Shown: positions 1,115-16,868 of the stretch, piece after piece
Layout of the letters: each line of letters opens with the position of its first letter
Position numbering within the stretch: position 1 is the stretch's first letter
IMG/VR virus record: IMGVR_UViG_2671180804_000001
Source: a virus
Taxonomy: Duplodnaviria > Heunggongvirae > Uroviricota > Caudoviricetes
Direction: 5' to 3' (one strand)
DNA: 16,868 nucleotides
Position numbers and translations under genes: made by a program
Notes under the pieces: generated by a model
Told to the model about the DNA's origin: nothing
The model's database searches: none
Seen by the model: only the letters and a program-made list of their open reading frames with translations

Positions 1115-1138
1115 CTGTATAAACATTTGTATAAACAC
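1115..1138 (+). promoter_or_regulatory. Tandem 12-bp direct repeat upstream of int (possible operator or arm-type site)
   Basis: ctgtataaacat / ttgtataaacac repeated head to tail, about 20 bp upstream of the integrase start. Confidence 0.3.
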
Positions 1139-1158
1139 TTTGGGCTGGGTAATGGTCT

Positions 1159-6481: not shown

Positions 6482-6843
6482 CCGATATTTTTGAAGTGAT
6501 AGGCCCATTGTTCCGCAAACTGACCGAAACATGTATTGCTCACCAGATAGCGGAAACCGGTTCGGCAACCTTGCTGGTGGAAAGCGATAAGTATATGGCC
6601 CGCTATCGCTTCACGCTGGAGCCGCGCGTAACTGAAAACGTATTGATGAAATATATGATTTTTGGCTGTTTTGAAGAATTCGGGCGCGATGAGGGGTTAA
6701 GGCGTTTGCGGGATATTCTGCTGACCTGCTTTACCGACGATGGCGATATTAACGAAATGGGGTTGCAGATAGTGAAAAGCTGCCACCTTGAATACCTGCA
6801 TGAAGATTTGGAAGCGGATCTTTCCAATAAGGTGCTGCACTGA
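6478..6843 (+). CDS. Hypothetical protein
   Basis: 121 aa. GGAGG RBS; ATGA overlap with the upstream gene and TGATG overlap with the downstream primase gene. Confidence 0.5.
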   Translation: MTDIFEVIGPLFRKLTETCIAHQIAETGSATLLVESDKYMARYRFTLEPRVTENVLMKYMIFGCFEEFGRDEGLRRLRDILLTCFTDDGDINEMGLQIVKSCHLEYLHEDLEADLSNKVLH

Positions 6844-8975
6844 TGAAGATGAAAAACGCCCCAAACATTAAGTGTCTGCCAAAGGACAAGTTTACTGAGG
6901 CGATTATTTTTGCGGGGGAAGATGCTTATTCACACGCGCAGCACTGGATCGAGAGCGAGGGGAAAAGGGCGGGGGATGATGTGCCGCCTGTGTATCTGGG
7001 GAAAAAGCAGCTGGAGGAGCTTGAAAGGCTGAATATCATCGATCAGGGGCGTCGTTGCGTACGCGTGATTAGAGCTGGCGAGCTTTCCGAAATGCAGATA
7101 AGCACTATCGCAACCAAACTGGCGCTGGCGGATGTGAAAGAGGCCCGGCTGTTTAATGGCATGTTTGAGCCTCAGCCGAAGGAGAACTGGACGGATGTAC
7201 TTCCACGGCTCAGGGAAGATGCCGAGCGTGGGGAAAGTATTGTGGTAAATCTGCCTGTGAAAAAAAGGGAGCCAAAGCCTGAACCGGGTGATGAACTGAA
7301 ACCCCGCGTAGAGAGCCGTAACGATGGCCTGTACTGGATCACGCCAAAGGTGGATAAGGACAGCGGAGAAATAATCAATAACGAAACGTGGATGTGTTCG
7401 CCGCTTGAGGTGGTGGGGTCCGGTAGTGACGGGGCCGAGCGCTATCTCGTTTTGCGCTGGCGTTCGCCACGTGGCCATGAAGATATTACCAGGGCGATCC
7501 CCTGTGCTGATATCGGTGAGCGTGACGGCTGGCGCTATCTAAAGGCTGGTGGGGTAAACGTAACGACTAAAAGTACATTCCGGGCAATTCTTGCCGACTG
7601 GCTACAGCAATGTGGTGCAGGGCAGGAATGGATTATTAGCCATACCACCGGCTGGCATCACGGCGCATACATCATGCCAGATGGTGAAGTTATCGGTGAT
7701 CCGGAAATGCCTATTCTCTTTAACGGTCGCAGCGCTGCATCTTCCGGTTATGCCGTGGCTGGAACTGCTGAGAGTTGGCGGGATTCAGTGGCATATCTGG
7801 CAGGAGGCAACCCATCGATGATGCTGGGTGTGGCTGCGGCATTGTCTGCGCCGCTGATCGGGCTGGTGGGCGCTGATGGCTTCGGCGTCCATTTGTTCGA
7901 ACAGTCCAGCGCCGGTAAGACTACCACCGCAAATATTGCGAGCAGTATTTGGGGCGAGCCCGACGCTTTGAGGTTGACCTGGTACGGTACCGCGCTTGGT
8001 ATTGCTAACGAGGCAGAGGCGCATAACGACAGCCTGTTACCACTTGATGAGGTAGGGCAGGGCAGCAGTGCTAAAGATGTCGCCACGTCTGCTTACACTT
8101 TGTTTAACGGGGCTGGGAAGTTGCAGGGGGCTAAAGAGGGTGGCAACCGGGAGCTAAAGCGCTGGCGAACTGTTGCGATCAGTACCGGGGAAATGGATAT
8201 TGAAACATTCCTGGCTGCTGGTGGAATTAGGGTGAAAGCTGGGCAGCTGGTGCGCCTGCTGAATATCCCCATGGAGAAATCCACGGCCTTTAACGGGCTG
8301 GCTAACGGAAAGGCCCACGCCGATGCACTGAAAGAGTCATGGATTGATAACCACGGCGCAGCAGGGCGTGAGTGGGTAAAATGGCTGGCAACCCACCAGC
8401 AGGAGGCTAAACAGGCTGTGCGGGATGCGCAGACGCGCTGGCGCAGTCTTATTCCGGCTGATTATGGTGAACAGGTTCATCGTGTGGCTGAGCGCTTCGC
8501 CATTCTTGAGGCTGCGCTGGTAACTGGTTCGCCGATAACTGGCTGGAGTGAACAAGCCAGCCGGGATGCTATTCAGCATAGCTTCAATGCCTGGGTAAAA
8601 GAATTCGGAACAGGTAACAAGGAGCACCAGCAGATCATCGAGCAGTGCGAGGCCTTTCTGAACGCGCATGGTATGAGCCGCTATGCTCCGCTGCCATACT
8701 GCCCGTCAGATATGCCAATTCGTGATATGGCTGGATACCGCGAAAGGGGCAAGCATGATGATTCGCCGATGGTGTTTTATACCTTCCCTTCTGCGTTCGA
8801 AAAAGAGATAGCGCAGGGGTTCAATGCGAAGCAGTTCGCCAGAGTTCTGTCTGAATCTGGAATGTTGACACCCCCAGCAAGCGGCAGGGGATACCAGCGG
8901 AAATCACCGCGTATCGATGGGCGTCAGATTAATGTTTACGTCATTCAGTACCAGCAGGAGGGAACCGAAGAATAA
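6843..8975 (+). CDS. Replication initiator, primase/helicase-like protein (P4 alpha-like role)
   Basis: 710 aa, last gene of the coupled operon and immediately upstream of the iteron array. Contains a P-loop-like motif (LFEQSSAGKTTTAN). Resembles satellite/prophage primase-helicase proteins of the DUF927 type; that assignment is from memory, not a search. Confidence 0.75.
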   Translation: MKMKNAPNIKCLPKDKFTEAIIFAGEDAYSHAQHWIESEGKRAGDDVPPVYLGKKQLEELERLNIIDQGRRCVRVIRAGELSEMQISTIATKLALADVKEARLFNGMFEPQPKENWTDVLPRLREDAERGESIVVNLPVKKREPKPEPGDELKPRVESRNDGLYWITPKVDKDSGEIINNETWMCSPLEVVGSGSDGAERYLVLRWRSPRGHEDITRAIPCADIGERDGWRYLKAGGVNVTTKSTFRAILADWLQQCGAGQEWIISHTTGWHHGAYIMPDGEVIGDPEMPILFNGRSAASSGYAVAGTAESWRDSVAYLAGGNPSMMLGVAAALSAPLIGLVGADGFGVHLFEQSSAGKTTTANIASSIWGEPDALRLTWYGTALGIANEAEAHNDSLLPLDEVGQGSSAKDVATSAYTLFNGAGKLQGAKEGGNRELKRWRTVAISTGEMDIETFLAAGGIRVKAGQLVRLLNIPMEKSTAFNGLANGKAHADALKESWIDNHGAAGREWVKWLATHQQEAKQAVRDAQTRWRSLIPADYGEQVHRVAERFAILEAALVTGSPITGWSEQASRDAIQHSFNAWVKEFGTGNKEHQQIIEQCEAFLNAHGMSRYAPLPYCPSDMPIRDMAGYRERGKHDDSPMVFYTFPSAFEKEIAQGFNAKQFARVLSESGMLTPPASGRGYQRKSPRIDGRQINVYVIQYQQEGTEE

Positions 8976-8995
8976 TTACACGTGAGGTTTATTTT

Positions 8996-9284
8996 GTTGG
9001 TTCAGTTGGTTCAGTAGGTAGTGTGTATCGTTATCGTGGTGTTTATATTGATTATTTTACACAGAAACTGAACCAACACTGAACCAACAAATGACTGTTT
9101 TGAACCAACAAGCGGGGGATTTGAACCAACATACCTACCCTGCCCGAATAAGTGTTTTTACTGAACCAACATAAAAACGGCGTTGTTGGTTCAAAACGGG
9201 GCTTTGTTGGTTCACTAAATAAAAATAAGTCTTTTAAAAACAATGTTCTTTACAAATTGAACCAACTGAACCAACTGAACCAAC
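8996..9284. repeat. Iteron array, putative origin of replication
   Basis: 12 exact copies of the 9-mer TGAACCAAC / GTTGGTTCA. Forward copies start at 9069, 9080, 9101, 9122, 9162, 9258, 9267, 9276; reverse copies at 8996, 9005, 9185, 9206. The array begins about 20 bp after the primase stop. Confidence 0.75.
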
Positions 9285-9321
9285 ATAGTTTTGTTTATAT
9301 ACGCAGAAAATGAGGTGAAAA

Positions 9322-12366: not shown

Positions 12367-12543
12367 ATGAACAAGAAGCAAAACTCACAAGTAGTGCTAC
12401 TGACGCGTGGTCAGGTTGAAGCTTTGCAACGCATTCAGGAAGAGGAGCGTAAACGTTCTGAATTTGGCATACAGCCATCAATCCATGAAATCGCACGCAA
12501 GCTGGTGGATAAGGCGCTGAGCTATCACGGAGGTGCTTTCTGA
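12367..12543 (+). CDS. Small putative DNA-binding protein (RHH-like), absent from the supplied ORF track
   Basis: 58-aa ORF translated by hand: MNKKQNSQVVLLTRGQVEALQRIQEEERKRSEFGIQPSIHEIARKLVDKALSYHGGAF. GGGGGTGG RBS upstream. Its stop overlaps the next start as TGATG. It falls below the apparent length cut-off of the ORF track. Confidence 0.45.
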   Translation: MNKKQNSQVVLLTRGQVEALQRIQEEERKRSEFGIQPSIHEIARKLVDKALSYHGGAF

Positions 12544-13379
12544 TGGCAAAAGTATCGTTAACAGCACTCCTTGGATTTACTGGTGGCGCAAATAACGTCC
12601 GCAATTCCCAAAAGCCAACACTTCGACAGCGGGAAAAATCCATGAGCAAAAAAGAGCGTAGCTTTGCACATCTTGATGCTGCGGCTACTCAAACGATTGT
12701 GGTGCAGGACCAGCAGCAAACCCAGACTCTGAAACCAGCCGGTTCTTACCGTATTTCCAGTCAGCATAGCCGGGGGCATAACGTTGCAATATCAGAGGAA
12801 GGGAAGAATAGCCCTGTCCTGGCGGTTAAGCTGTTACGTGAAACGAAACTAAGCTCCAGTAAAATCCGTGCTCGCCTTCGGGAAGAGCCTGCGGCTTTAT
12901 CAAAGTTCACGGCTAATTTCATGGAAGAAAATATGCCAGGCTGGGAATTTCTCAACGATGAGGAAAAATCCAGAACTGCCATGCAGCTATCCATTCGCGA
13001 TAATGATCAGAACGGTTATCACGCTTCCCGGAATCGTGCATCTCAAACGCTTAAATCGCTTGAAGAACCACTTACTGATGATGAAAAGCAGGCGATGCTC
13101 GAAAATCTTCGTCTGGACCAAAATGCTTCCGATCCTGATACCCCGGATAATGTTGCGGCCCGAAAACAAGCTGACGATGAATATCAGGAGCAGGTTGCCA
13201 GGGCTATTGTTGCCAGAAACAATCAAATGCGTTCCACCGGTGTGTTCTTGCCAGGCGATACCCGTACAGCTGGTGGTAAGCCCTCCGCACCTCGAAATGA
13301 GTTGCAGATGATTAAGTCTGGTCTTAAATCCGGGGCTATTGTGGTTTCTCAGCCCTCAAATGGAGAAATTCATCCATGA
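12543..13379 (+). CDS. Hypothetical protein, long paralogue of the following gene
   Basis: 278 aa with GGAGGTG RBS 7 nt upstream; coupled to the small ORF upstream. Shares a domain of about 100 aa with the next gene. Confidence 0.5.
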   Translation: MAKVSLTALLGFTGGANNVRNSQKPTLRQREKSMSKKERSFAHLDAAATQTIVVQDQQQTQTLKPAGSYRISSQHSRGHNVAISEEGKNSPVLAVKLLRETKLSSSKIRARLREEPAALSKFTANFMEENMPGWEFLNDEEKSRTAMQLSIRDNDQNGYHASRNRASQTLKSLEEPLTDDEKQAMLENLRLDQNASDPDTPDNVAARKQADDEYQEQVARAIVARNNQMRSTGVFLPGDTRTAGGKPSAPRNELQMIKSGLKSGAIVVSQPSNGEIHP

Positions 13380-13825
13380 CTTTCAGCCACCTGAATAACA
13401 GTCCCATGGCTGTGGCAGGTGGCCTTTGGGCCTCTGTCACCCCGATAACAAATGATGTCACTACGATGTCAGCGCATGCAGAGGCCCACTATATTGCGAG
13501 CAGCGAACCAGCTAAACACAACCCCATACTTGCTCTCCGTCTTATTGAACAGGGCATACCTCACCAGAAAGCAATCAGTGTGCTGGAGAAGTCCCCGCGA
13601 GCGCTAAGCAATTATACCGTTCGGAAAATGGAACGTTTCTGCCCCGGCTGGGAGCTGATGACTGAAGAAATGCAGAATATGGAGGCGTATCTCCATAGTG
13701 TCAGAACCAGCGATGGAAATGGATATCTGGCTTGTATGAACGCGGCCACAGCGGCATTAAATAAATTTATAGAGCCGGTAACGGCTGAAGACTTTATCCT
13801 GGTGGGAGATAGTGCTGATGTCTAA
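13376..13825 (+). CDS. Hypothetical protein, short paralogue of the preceding gene
   Basis: 149 aa; ATGA overlap with the upstream gene. RKMERFCPGWELMTEE...DGNGYLA aligns with NFMEENMPGWEFLNDE...DQNGYHA in the preceding protein. Confidence 0.5.
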   Translation: MTFSHLNNSPMAVAGGLWASVTPITNDVTTMSAHAEAHYIASSEPAKHNPILALRLIEQGIPHQKAISVLEKSPRALSNYTVRKMERFCPGWELMTEEMQNMEAYLHSVRTSDGNGYLACMNAATAALNKFIEPVTAEDFILVGDSADV

Positions 13826-14228
13826 TTCATTTGATTTTGAGCTGGTGGCTGACGATAAGGTCAGTGGTGCAATTGAGCGTATTAATGAATCACTGAATGA
13901 CTTGCAGCCGAAGCTGGATAAAACCAGAACGGGGCTGCAATTCGGTGGGCAGGAAACACTGGATGGTTTGAACGGGTATAACTCTCGCCTTGAGCTGATG
14001 GCCCAAAGCGCCAGAGATAATGTGCAGTATATCGGTAATATGGTCCCACCATTAAAATGGTTGGGGATATCTCCGGAAAGCTGGAGAAAATGGCGAAGAT
14101 TGGCCTTGTCGGTGGTGCTATTGGTGGTGTTGCCTACGCAACTGGAAAACTGGCTGAAAGCTACCGGGAAGCATCGCGTGAGGCCTATAACCTTGACGTA
14201 TCGTCTAAAAATGCCGGAATGCGGGTAG
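13818..14228 (+). CDS. N-terminal fragment of a frameshift-interrupted gene
   Basis: ATG 13818 with GGGAG RBS. Translation looks protein-like up to about 14040. After that the frame gives W/R-rich sequence, while the -1 frame (ORF 14057..14878) opens at 14039 and looks protein-like. Confidence 0.4.
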   Translation: MSNSFDFELVADDKVSGAIERINESLNDLQPKLDKTRTGLQFGGQETLDGLNGYNSRLELMAQSARDNVQYIGNMVPPLKWLGISPESWRKWRRLALSVVLLVVLPTQLENWLKATGKHRVRPITLTYRLKMPECG

Positions 14229-14878
14229 ACGACTTCTCTCGCCTTGCTGGTGCGTTGCAGTTTGTCGGCGCTGATAGTGAGAGCGCCAGTTCGTCTATTG
14301 AGGGATTTGCGAAGGCGCTGAAGGAGGCAAGTAGCGGCAGCAATCAGGGCATGATGGCGGCATTTGCGACAATTGGTGTGCAGATACAGAAAAATAAAGA
14401 CGGGTCTGTTGATACGCTAAAAACGTTACAGGAAATTGCGAGAATTTTCCCTAAATACCGCTCGGAACAACAGAAGTCAATCGCTGACAGTCTTGGTCTG
14501 ACACCTGAAATGCTGGCGTTAATGCGTGAGGGGGCGCGAATGAAAACCCTTCTGGCAAAAGCCGATAAAGTTGGACTGACAGTCGATCCCACGCTCAATC
14601 AGCAACTGACGGACTTTAACTCTGCAATAAACGAGGTCAGTGCCTCATGGGATGGCTTTAAGTCTAAAGTCGAGCGTAAAATTTACTCGCACCTTGATAA
14701 TAACGGCATAACAGATACTGTACGTGGCGCATCTGATATGCTTGAGAACAACTTTGACAATATCTCAATTGGTCGCTTCTCGGGACAAAACAAAGGGGAT
14801 GATTCTGCATTAATGCGCCGAGCATTGCGCGACCCTGAGTTTATCAAACAGCTCGATGGGAATGAAAAAACCAGCTGA
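14057..14878 (+). CDS. Central segment of the interrupted gene
   Basis: 273-aa ORF in the -1 frame relative to 13818. No RBS at its own ATG, so it is more likely a continuation than an independent gene. The helical, Ala/Leu-rich composition loosely resembles the N-terminal part of tape-measure-like proteins; this is my impression only. Confidence 0.5.
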   Translation: MVGDISGKLEKMAKIGLVGGAIGGVAYATGKLAESYREASREAYNLDVSSKNAGMRVDDFSRLAGALQFVGADSESASSSIEGFAKALKEASSGSNQGMMAAFATIGVQIQKNKDGSVDTLKTLQEIARIFPKYRSEQQKSIADSLGLTPEMLALMREGARMKTLLAKADKVGLTVDPTLNQQLTDFNSAINEVSASWDGFKSKVERKIYSHLDNNGITDTVRGASDMLENNFDNISIGRFSGQNKGDDSALMRRALRDPEFIKQLDGNEKTS

Positions 14879-14889
14879 CTGCTGGCGTT

Positions 14890-15642
14890 ATGACTGATCA
14901 GGCGAGAAATAAATACCGCAGACATTATTATAACCAGGACAGGGCACAACAATTACTGGACGATATGTCCGCCATTACCCGCCCTCAGGCTCCAGGTAGA
15001 AATAATGTGCCATATAACCAAGGGGGTCAGTATGATTCTATTTTTAGCGATGCTGGCAAAAAATGGGGCGTCGACCCGCGTCTACTCAAAGCCATTATGA
15101 TGCAAGAATCTGGTGGCAATCCTAATGCTATTAGTGACGCTGATGCTCGTGGGTTAATGCAGATAATCCCCCCGAACTTCAAAGCCACCGGGATAACGGA
15201 CTGGAAAGACCCAAACCAGAATATTAATGCTGGAGCACAAATTTTATCCGAAAACTTACAGAGGTCAGGTGGCGACGTACCTCTGGCGCTTCGATATTAC
15301 CACGGAGGATATGACCGCCGTCGATGGGGGCCAAAAAATCAGGCTTATCCATATGCGGTCCTCGATAATTACCAGCAAATTATTAAAGGTGAAGCCCGCC
15401 AACGTGACGGCTTTCCAGATATCCCCATTAATGGGCAATCTGCAGGTTCAGGAATTTTGCAGCCAATTCAGAATGGGAGCCGTAGTGAAAGTACGCTCAC
15501 TGATAACCTGGCTCGTTCGCTTAAAGAGGCAATGTCCGATCAGACGCTGAAGCTTGAAATCACCATGGTCAATGATAAGGGTGAACGTAAGACCTACAAC
15601 GTTGAGAATAATGGACGGATCACCACGCCAATGAATTATTGA
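14890..15642 (+). CDS. Lytic transglycosylase (SLT) domain protein, C-terminal segment of the interrupted gene
   Basis: 250 aa. Family-1 lytic transglycosylase motifs are present: MMQESGGNPNA (catalytic Glu-Ser), GLMQI, and a downstream YYHGG block. Its frame is open from 14866 and overlaps the stop of the preceding ORF at an A6 homopolymer. Confidence 0.7.
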   Translation: MTDQARNKYRRHYYNQDRAQQLLDDMSAITRPQAPGRNNVPYNQGGQYDSIFSDAGKKWGVDPRLLKAIMMQESGGNPNAISDADARGLMQIIPPNFKATGITDWKDPNQNINAGAQILSENLQRSGGDVPLALRYYHGGYDRRRWGPKNQAYPYAVLDNYQQIIKGEARQRDGFPDIPINGQSAGSGILQPIQNGSRSESTLTDNLARSLKEAMSDQTLKLEITMVNDKGERKTYNVENNGRITTPMNY

Positions 15643-15755
15643 TACCGACAGGCACTCAGGAGGTGACCGTATATAAAAATGGGTCCTTCCTGAGACTTTT
15701 GTAAGGCACGGGCATTGCGCGCCGCAGTGTTTTCCTAGCTACAGGTTTTGAATTT

Positions 15756-15961
15756 GATTGACACTTTACACTAAGGTTTTTCCGGTTGCTGGGTTGTTAA
15801 CTCCCTTGAGCGGCAAGGGATTACCGGGAATAACCGCCGATCCTGATTGACAGTCAGATTGACACTTTCTGCCTGAAAAGTGTCAACCGGACAGAAAAAG
15901 TGTCAAGTAGCTGGCGCTTTACAGTTTGATTGACAGTTTCCCGCTGGTGGGTTGACACATT
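15756..15961. promoter_or_regulatory. Cluster of TTGACA(C/G)TTT repeats upstream of the TerS-like gene
   Basis: Copies at 15756..15767, 15845..15854, 15857..15868, 15928..15939 and 15952..15961 (forward) and 15877..15886 and 15897..15906 (reverse). The pair 15857..15868 / 15877..15886 forms an inverted repeat around a short spacer. Confidence 0.45.
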
Positions 15962-15994
15962 GCCTGCCAATGACAATTACCCAGGAGAAAAAAT

Positions 15995-16582
15995 ATGTCA
16001 CTGATGAGTGTGAGTCAGTACGCTAAACACGCAGGGCTAAGTCGTCAGGCCCTTTACAACTGGGAGGCTAAGCAAGGTTTCCCCGCACGAGTGGACGGCA
16101 AGATTGACCAACTGGCCTGTGATGCTTATCTAGCCCGGTATCGTAGTAGCAGTGACCCGCGTACAAAGAATGCAAAGAGCAAGCCCATATCGGCTAGGGA
16201 GGTAAAGTCGATGGGGCGTGAACCGGTAGATATGAGTGTGACCGAGATAAAGCGCATTATGGCTGGCGACGCTAACAAAGCGGCCGGAATGGTCCTAGAA
16301 GAGCATGCTCAACTAGCTGCACAAGCAGTGGGCCTGTTTTTGAGTAAAGGGCCGAATAATCCCCCTGTCACATTTGGTGGTTACCGCTTGTCGATTGTTG
16401 AAACGCCAGATCATGAAGTTGGGCAGATCATTGCTGGTGGTGCGTTCGGCCTGTCTGCTGACGATGTAATTTTTGAATGCCGGGATTACACCCTGGCACT
16501 AATGAGTGATGAGACCGAAGAAACAGCCATGCGGAGGGTTACTCCTTCGCTACTGTACGCCCTGGCCGACTACAACCACTAA
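15995..16582 (+). CDS. HTH-domain protein, terminase small subunit-like (possible packaging protein)
   Basis: 195 aa with GGAG RBS. The N-terminal HTH (VSQYAKHAGLSRQALYNWEAKQGFP) is similar in pattern to the lambda Nu1-type TerS DNA-binding motif, as I recall it. Confidence 0.5.
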   Translation: MSLMSVSQYAKHAGLSRQALYNWEAKQGFPARVDGKIDQLACDAYLARYRSSSDPRTKNAKSKPISAREVKSMGREPVDMSVTEIKRIMAGDANKAAGMVLEEHAQLAAQAVGLFLSKGPNNPPVTFGGYRLSIVETPDHEVGQIIAGGAFGLSADDVIFECRDYTLALMSDETEETAMRRVTPSLLYALADYNH

Positions 16583-16610
16583 AGCAAAGTGTGCCTGCAG
16601 GCTCCTGTTT

Positions 16611-16634
16611 GCCAGCCTCCGGGCTGGTTTTTTT
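16611..16634 (+). terminator. Rho-independent terminator
   Basis: CCAGCC - tccg - GGCTGG stem-loop followed by TTTTTTT, about 30 bp after the TerS-like stop. Confidence 0.65.
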
Positions 16635-16676
16635 GCGTTATTGCTCCATGAGTTCGGATCACAAAAGGATACTATC

Positions 16677-16868
16677 ATGTTGAAACAGGCAAAAATCGAG
16701 GCTGTGATTGAAGAATTGGCACGCCAGCAGGGGCACGAGCTTAATGCCGCCGATATGCTGGAGATTCGTTGCCGTGTGGCCTGTACGCTAGCGGCCAAAG
16801 AACGGCACCGCTGGCGCATGACAGCACCCGAATACCGATGGCGCAAGCCTGATAAATTACGCCGTTGA
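16677..16868 (+). CDS. Hypothetical small protein
   Basis: 63 aa from ATG 16677 with AAGGA upstream. The ORF track starts at 16506, but that upstream part runs through the terminator. The TGA stop is the last three bases of the window. Confidence 0.45.
   Translation: MLKQAKIEAVIEELARQQGHELNAADMLEIRCRVACTLAAKERHRWRMTAPEYRWRKPDKLRR

Follow-up and report, generated by a model that had tools for sequence, protein, structure and literature searches.

A TerS-like gene beside a cos site in an enterobacterial satellite encodes a candidate packaging-specificity factor

To our knowledge, Rpp is so far the only worked-out mechanism by which cos satellites of Gram-negative bacteria hijack a terminase. 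In EcCICFT073, a cos site with a private cosB adjoins rpp, and the winged helix-turn-helix (wHTH) protein encoded there re-targets the Nu1/gpA terminase (PMC6739421). Rpp islands combine a helper-type cosQ and cosN with a divergent cosB (PMC6739421; PMC9026076), a combination also seen in the island described here. The layout is likewise that of RppA, RppB and RppC (PMC6739421; PDB 6HLK, 6HN7), with a TerS-like wHTH gene located after a cos site with a divergent cosB. In some PICIs of Gram-negative bacteria, surveys had already recorded 'terS homologs' (PMC6092414; PMC10085698). A description of the present family, its cos type or the co-variation of its cassette was not found in the literature.

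The DNA analysed here (referred to as the window; 16,868 nucleotides, IMG/VR virus record IMGVR_UViG_2671180804_000001) had been predicted to encode a satellite-borne TerS-like HTH protein close to its right end. The following features were located in this region:

15995-16582, + strand: TerS-like HTH gene (195 aa, ATG at 15995, stop codon at 16580-16582)
16611-16638, + strand: intrinsic-terminator-like hairpin with a T run, 3' of the TerS-like gene
16677-16868, + strand: 63-aa ORF, the last gene of the island (PHROG 7271, E 6e-28, full length)

An AGGAG motif is present at 15983-15987, 7 nt before the ATG. Searching 5.8 billion proteins for homologues of the 195-aa protein returned 118 relatives, about 100 of which are full length (190-201 aa) with 53-98% identity. 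All of them belong to Enterobacterales (genera include Citrobacter, Klebsiella, Raoultella, Serratia, Yersinia, Pectobacterium and Morganella) and almost all are named 'hypothetical'; the nearest relative is found in Citrobacter braakii. Since about 100 full-length homologues are conserved in Enterobacterales, this is a real, selected gene, and the original prediction was correct as to its exact coordinates. In each of the Enterobacterales islands inspected, the TerS-like gene has an ORF of 62-64 aa behind it, which is missing from the distant island L030. The 63-aa ORF may belong to the same module.

The island and its ends

The left and central parts of the window contain the following elements:

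908-985: attL, a 78-bp sequence that imperfectly repeats the 3' end of fis and its terminator
1159-2295: P4-type integrase gene
2304-2371: int-alpA RNA, between the integrase gene and the next ORF (Rfam RF02996, 60.8 bits)
6843-8975: DUF927 primase-helicase gene
8987-9300: island replication origin, AT-rich (36% GC), containing 14 or more TGAACCAAC iterons that run in both orientations

Genes for AlpA, AntA and Icd-like proteins are also present in the window and were named by comparison with a related annotated island. The origin is located directly downstream of the DUF927 gene, and an origin directly after the primase gene is the arrangement of PICIs (PMC6092414). The island shows the Gram-negative PICI layout, with the order int-alpA-pri/rep-ori, unidirectional genes, a length of 10-20 kb, att repeats and no structural or lysis module. 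The counterpart of attL, attR, was found at L006:10964-11040, about 90 bp beyond the window, and shares an exact core of 24 nt with attL. Since the 78-bp direct repeats mark both ends, the island is about 16.0 kb long; its insertion site is the 3' end of fis. Near both ends, paired TGTATAAACA(N2)TGTATAAACA motifs are present (window 1125-1146; L006:10938-11040), which look like candidate integrase arm sites.

The original prediction had expected the rest of a packaging module beyond the window, and this part was refuted. In contigs encoding an identical protein, the gene is followed by the 63-aa ORF and then by host fis, dusB and prmA. With the island ending at fis, some 90 bp beyond the window, the gene has no terL, portal or capsid gene behind it, and the 63-aa ORF is all that lies between the gene and the island end. 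A check for terL, portal and capsid genes found none in the contigs with the identical protein or in the related island of E. coli 1368KP, which is integrated between gcd and hpt.

The sole phage-like structural relic in the island is a fragmented TMP/SLT gene, which is preceded by two further ORFs:

12543-13379 and 13376-13825: tandem ORFs (278 and 149 aa)
13812-15642: tape-measure-like gene with a C-terminal SLT lytic transglycosylase domain (PHROG 2276, PHROG 2013, Pfam SLT)

The tape-measure-like gene is split into three ORFs in three frames by two frameshifts. Independent assemblies show the same frameshifts; therefore, the gene is a pseudogene and not the product of a sequencing error. 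A Klebsiella-type island (L152:818-2692) has an intact 624-aa version of the gene at the corresponding place, immediately before cos. The tandem ORFs are paralogues of each other without family matches, and both are related to a 160-aa gene found before the tape-measure-like gene in other islands (tblastn, 40-54% identity to L152:339-821).

The cos site and the repeat array upstream of the gene

The region upstream of the TerS-like gene was compared with complete E. coli genomes and viral contigs, and the following features were assigned:

15675-15756, + strand: cos-homology segment shared with helper-type lambdoid prophages (82 bp, about 94% identity)
15681-15687, + strand: cosQ-like heptamer GGGTCCT of presumed cosQ function, the same as the lambda heptamer at the cosQ position
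15707-15724, + strand: cosN core of 18 nt, CACGGGCATTGCGCGCCG
15711-15722, + strand: predicted 12-nt cohesive end GGCATTGCGCGC, bounded by predicted nicks
15758-15982, + strand: cosB-like array of TTGACA(C/G)TTT repeats, candidate binding sites

Megablast against 5,426 complete E. coli genomes matched 59 genomes, four with related islands and 55 with only a stretch of about 80 bp. In about 56 E. coli genomes, a counterpart of 15675-15756 precedes terS-terL by 150-230 bp. These prophages encode, in this order, a 187-193-aa TerS overlapping a gpA-type TerL, gpW, the portal, an S49 protease, a decoration protein and the MCP, and their cos stretch directly follows the lysis genes, which is the position of cos in lambda. 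The 187-aa prophage ORF upstream of terL is a full-length PHROG 57 TerS (E 1e-34); the helper proteins belong to the Nu1 family (TerS) and the gpA family (TerL), and the lambda-like temperate phages with this cosQ/cosN core form a widespread group. Only about 1% of E. coli genomes have such a prophage. Of the four complete E. coli genomes with an island, three also harbour a prophage with this cos, TerS and TerL; these three may be clonal. The cos segment is kept in 20 related islands.

The distance from the start of GGGTCCT to the predicted nick is 30 nt, the same as in lambda, and TGGGTCC.TCC is at least 90% conserved in the islands and in 97 phage contigs. The predicted cohesive end was placed from the lambda cosQ-nick spacing and from a CACGG...CCGTG dyad in other loci, giving ...CACG/GGCATTGCGCGC/CGC... 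for the surrounding sequence. The exact 18-mer is present in at least 120 IMG/VR viral contigs, mostly of 40-46 kb; in 98 IMG/VR contigs a phage-type TerS starts 50-215 nt downstream of it, and two are of the island type. Contig ends near the 18-nt core are inconsistent in IMG/VR and were left out of the nick placement. An ungapped alignment of the cos region to lambda gave 44/110 identities, a value that is not significant alone and is equalled at 17 other offsets in the window; likeness to lambda was judged by landmarks only, namely the heptamer at cosQ, its spacing of 30 nt and the place at which the repeats lie. Searches of GenBank phages with 15600-16868 (blastn) and with the helper TerS (tblastn) found no close isolate. 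Since no isolated GenBank phage carries this cos, an end-mapped reference for it is absent, and a literature search for the predicted cohesive-end sequence returned nothing relevant.

Two variations of the core were observed among the islands. In those from Morganella, Yersinia and Edaphovirga (L018, L020, L022), the cos core contains one extra base (CACGGGTCATTGCGCGCCGTG or CACGGGACATTGCGCGCCGTG), which may reflect a slightly different cohesive end in the helpers of those hosts. The Brenneria corticis island (L028:3600-4000) keeps the TTGACA repeats and the SRQALY helix of the protein, and its cosN core differs (CACGGGCTGGGCGACGCCCCG). This pattern suggests that cosN follows the helper present locally, and cosB the protein encoded by the island itself.

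A repeat array just upstream of the gene had been part of the original prediction, which overlooked the cos site at 15675-15756. The array itself is clearly present: 7 of the 13 TTGACA hexamers of the window fall in 15758-15957, with about 0.12 expected per 200 bp. Its elements are:

15758, 15847, 15859, 15930, 15952: plus-strand TTGACA copies
15881-86, 15901-06: minus-strand TTGACA copies
near 15765, 15918, 15970: degenerate copies, with TTTACA and ATGACA types present
15771-15846: spacer in the array region
15853-15868 / 15877-15892: inverted repeat GTCAGATTGACACTTT / AAAGTGTCAACCGGAC, a candidate dimer site (16-nt arms, 88% complementary, 8-nt gap)

The first TTGACA repeat is located at bp 48 from the predicted left end. 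In lambda, R3 occupies bp 50-65, and for Rpp islands an R3 at bp 48-65 has been proposed (PMC9026076). The sequences of the island and the phages diverge right after the shared cos stretch; the first repeat is found at the same place in all of them, but each carries its own repeat together with its own recognition helix:

Phage group 1: helix VDRKTIGRW, 7-8 copies of ATGTCCCA
Phage group 2: helix VSRKTVT.W, 3-8 copies of GGTAACA
Window island: helix SRQALY, 7 copies of TTGACA plus degenerate copies

At 98 phage TerS loci, neither TTGACA nor TTCACA repeats were found. By its position and content, the TTGACA array is the predicted private cosB of the island. A function of the array as origin iterons was ruled out, as the island has a typical separate origin after the primase gene (8987-9300); a distant island likewise has its origin iterons away from its repeats.

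TTGACA is also the -35 hexamer of sigma-70 promoters, which makes an operator or promoter role for the array conceivable, although no full promoter was found. This bears on the alternative that the protein is a MerR/Xis-like transcription regulator or an autorepressor and that the TTGACA copies are operators or overlapping -35 boxes with no part in packaging, a reading that we consider improbable. It would fit with the repeats being located in the gene's own upstream region. On the other hand, a sigma-70 promoter scan of 15550-16868 detected no site, and the array occupies the cosB position beside a shared cos core, where the phages have repeats of their own.

To relate the repeats to the protein, we compared 20 islands from more than 10 genera, in all of which the arrangement of cos, array and gene is conserved. 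The SRQALY helix always occurs with TTGACA (12 loci, 6-10 copies, no TTCACA) and the SRR(S/A)FY helix always with TTCACA (8 loci, 5-8 copies, no TTGACA), so that helix and repeat agree in 20/20 islands. On a tree of the C-terminal domain, the class changes at least 7 times among the 20 loci and about 15 times among 96 proteins; thus, the co-variation is not simply due to shared ancestry. In two pairs of islands, identity is about 99% between the C-domains and 94-100% between the cos cores; the partners differ only in a cassette that spans cosB and the first ~50 nt of the gene, with 38-50% identity. These comparisons indicate that repeats and DNA-binding domain are exchanged jointly, as one cassette. 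TerS genes of helper-type E. coli prophages are located at L002:8229-8792 and L003:8233-8814 (both 'hypothetical protein' in RefSeq). The TerS proteins of MIN9 and 20KM2222 have near-identical C-terminal halves, whereas their heads and repeats differ (ATGTCCCA versus GGTAACA); therefore, phages exchange the same cosB/DNA-binding-domain cassette. A distant family has about 40% identity and 195-234 aa. For this family one context was examined, in which the gene is the last one of an int-AlpA-primase-DUF927 island and is accompanied by the same cosQ/cosN core, three TTTACA repeats and the helix SRQAVY.

The co-variation of helix and repeats requires ongoing selection. This argues against a decayed packaging remnant of a prophage, that is, a broken terS beside cos that is functionless now. 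The neighbouring tape-measure-like/SLT gene, broken by two frameshifts, would agree with decay, but the TerS-like gene keeps its two-domain length and its invariant motifs across more than 10 genera and is always found at the right end of intact int-AlpA-primase islands. We regard a remnant as very improbable.

Domain structure of the protein

An alignment of the homologues shows a conserved N-terminal HTH, a variable linker and a very conserved C-terminal domain, which correspond to three segments of the gene:

15995-16171, + strand: Nu1/TerS-type winged-HTH DNA-binding domain (aa 1-59), recognition helix S16-R-Q-A-L-Y21
16172-16222, + strand: variable linker (aa 60-76), predicted to be disordered (pLDDT <50 at residues 60-74)
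16223-16582, + strand: satellite-specific C-terminal alpha/beta domain (aa 77-195) and stop codon

Conservation in the alignment is lowest in the linker, and conserved motifs of the C-domain are PPVTFGGYRL, AGGAFGL and Cys162. In an AlphaFold2 model built from 50 homologues (mean pLDDT 76), the winged HTH (residues 1-50) is predicted with confidence, the linker is disordered and the C-domain has an alpha/beta fold of moderate confidence. The PHROG 57 profile 'terminase small subunit' matches residues 1-75 (E 2.7e-9) with its positions 10-76 of 199; the helper TerS spans profile positions 10-178, and lambda Nu1 is a full-length member of this family (E 1.3e-76). The most probable Foldseek match (0.98) is 7lw0_A, which is Nu1 residues 1-56.

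For the C-domain, no structural neighbour was found in PDB or BFVD, where matches were confined to the HTH domain, and no phage in BFVD or PHROGs contains it. A recognisable TerL- or TerS-binding feature was not detected in this domain. No Pfam or NCBIfam model scored above cutoff with the whole protein, PADLOC gave only a weak HTH match, and PDB sequence searches with the single sequence or a 50-sequence profile produced no meaningful match. No match to PF07471 (Phage_Nu1) was obtained at E <= 0.1, a result that discriminates weakly because the TerS proteins of helper prophages miss PF07471 too.

The two halves were compared separately using hhalign. The N-domain matches the N-domain of the helper TerS with a probability of 99.8% (E 1e-27), whereas the probability is 1.8% for the two C-domains; the C-domain of the distant satellite family is matched with 99.3%. 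The DNA-binding region is 41% identical to that of the TerS of phages with the same cos, and the segment after the HTH (IDQLACDAYLARYR...DPR..NAK) still resembles the helper TerS. Because the halves behave so differently, the protein is a chimera of a terminase DNA-binding head and a satellite-specific body. Judged by these comparisons, it is not a complete TerS, as the C-terminal part of TerS and an adjacent terL are both missing. The Nu1-type TerS resemblance proposed at the outset thus holds for the N-terminal HTH, for which TerS DNA-binding domains are the top match in sequence and structure, and does not extend to the C-terminal 120 residues, which match no TerS.

The domain searches also returned results that would suit a transcription regulator: sub-threshold weak matches to the HTH_3, YdaS and HTH_Tnp families, a match to PHROG 66 'excisionase and transcriptional regulator' (E 4.7e-5), structural neighbours that include MerR-family proteins and AlpA-type excisionases, and one source that calls a homologue a MerR regulator. 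However, DNA-binding domains of TerS proteins rank first both by sequence and by structure, with the 41% identity found for the phages that share the cos. An excisionase was ruled out, since AlpA is already present in the island and the att sites are about 1 kb away; the same two observations speak against a regulator of this type.

The C-domain is also central to another alternative, in which the protein is a self-sufficient replacement small terminase that binds the island cosB and recruits the helper TerL through its C-domain, with no need for the helper TerS, which would be the logic of SaPI TerS in a cos system. A TerS-like size (195 aa compared to 187-193 aa for the helper TerS) is in line with this, and so are a multi-site cosB as in lambda, compared to the single R3-like site proposed for Rpp islands (PMC9026076), and the strong conservation of the C-domain, as expected of a domain that touches a conserved partner. 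Yet the C-domain is not homologous to the TerL-binding part of TerS (the 1.8% given above), PHROG 57 covers residues 1-75 only, the domain is found in no BFVD or PHROGs phage, and the helper TerS is required in the only cos PICI studied (PMC6092414). This makes a replacement small terminase rather unlikely.

Proposed role in packaging and comparison with described systems

Taken together, the gene probably encodes the packaging-specificity factor of a cos-type PICI, which would redirect the helper terminase. Redirection of helper packaging to satellite DNA was the core of the original prediction; comparative evidence supports it in the form of the array at the cosB position, the shared cos and the 20/20 co-variation, and the downstream module did not stand, nor does the likeness to a small terminase reach beyond the DNA-binding domain.

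According to this proposal, helper induction would be followed by replication of the island from its own origin. The protein would bind the TTGACA array through its winged HTH and thereby mark island concatemers as packaging substrates. The C-domain or a retained dimer helix of the DNA-binding domain would couple the complex to the helper terminase, either as a hetero-oligomer with the helper TerS, as for Rpp, or by direct contact with TerL. Rpp-like hetero-oligomerisation would fit with the similarity to the helper TerS that persists just behind the HTH. The island is without a terminase large subunit, and the helper TerL would nick the shared cosN. A helper capsid would take up about three copies of the island (3 x 16 kb), and helper DNA without TTGACA sites would be disfavoured. 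Packaging of island multimers is described for EcCICFT073 (PMC6092414).

We also consider, tentatively, a wider reading of the same data, according to which the proteins form a widespread and so far undescribed group of satellite 'TerS-head chimeras'. Here, the satellite-only domain would capture the terminase, possibly TerL, the helper TerS would be dispensable, and cosB and DNA-binding domain would be an exchangeable cassette. If this were true, satellites with such a chimera could retain an address of their own for packaging and still follow whichever cosN is in use among local helpers, as exemplified by the Brenneria island.

Returning to the packaging-specificity factor, the islands provide a rare natural specificity-swap series, in which Q-A-L occurs with TTGACA, R-S/A-F with TTCACA and Q-A-V with TTTACA (one distant island). 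It opens the recognition code of Nu1-type terminases to direct testing, and a possible use is the design of orthogonal cos/TerS pairs for delivery vehicles of the cosmid kind. Furthermore, a common, unstudied cos type with the predicted end GGCATTGCGCGC has been identified, and the E. coli HS prophage, at ~2.08 Mb in NC_009800, is a candidate laboratory helper.

Comparison with RppA and RppC, for which the query sequences were taken from an OCR copy of the supplement of the paper, gave hhalign probabilities of 14-37% over only about 30 HTH residues. With phmmer and hmmsearch of PDB, the 195-aa protein did not retrieve 6HLK at E <= 10. Rpp proteins have 135-153 aa and a helical C-part, in contrast to the 195 aa and the alpha/beta C-domain found here. 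The protein is not a member of the Rpp family, since the alignment is limited to about 30 residues, a link to 6HLK is missing, and neither the size nor the fold of the C-terminal part agrees. Unlike Rpp, its DNA-binding domain is clearly homologous to the helper's own TerS (41% identity). The cosB of the present system is an array of 7-10 copies, whereas a single R3-like site is proposed for Rpp islands, and cosN type and helper lineage differ as well. The module is predicted to work like Rpp but lies outside the Rpp family.

Lambda Nu1 and its cosB share with the present system a homologous DNA-binding domain, sites in both orientations between cosN and the start codon, and a first site at bp ~48-60, like R3. 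The satellite protein differs from Nu1 in that the oligomerisation/TerL-binding part is missing, no terL follows and there is no Phage_Nu1 match. In the staphylococcal pac-type systems, SaPI TerS-S and Ppi, a satellite specificity subunit likewise redirects the helper TerL. SaPI TerS, however, is a complete homologue acting in headful (pac) packaging, with a second protein for interference, while the protein described here is a chimera in a cos-type system. P4 and SaPIbov5 carry the cos cleavage site of the helper, as does this island. They keep the full recognition site of the helper and encode no specificity protein, whereas cosB and its presumed reader are private to the island described here.

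With a DNA-binding domain that plainly descends from the TerS of the helper, the family has reached the Rpp-type architecture with a different protein. The system would be a second, independent solution to cos hijacking. Packaging redirection is known in principle from E. coli islands, and the system described here adds another version of it.
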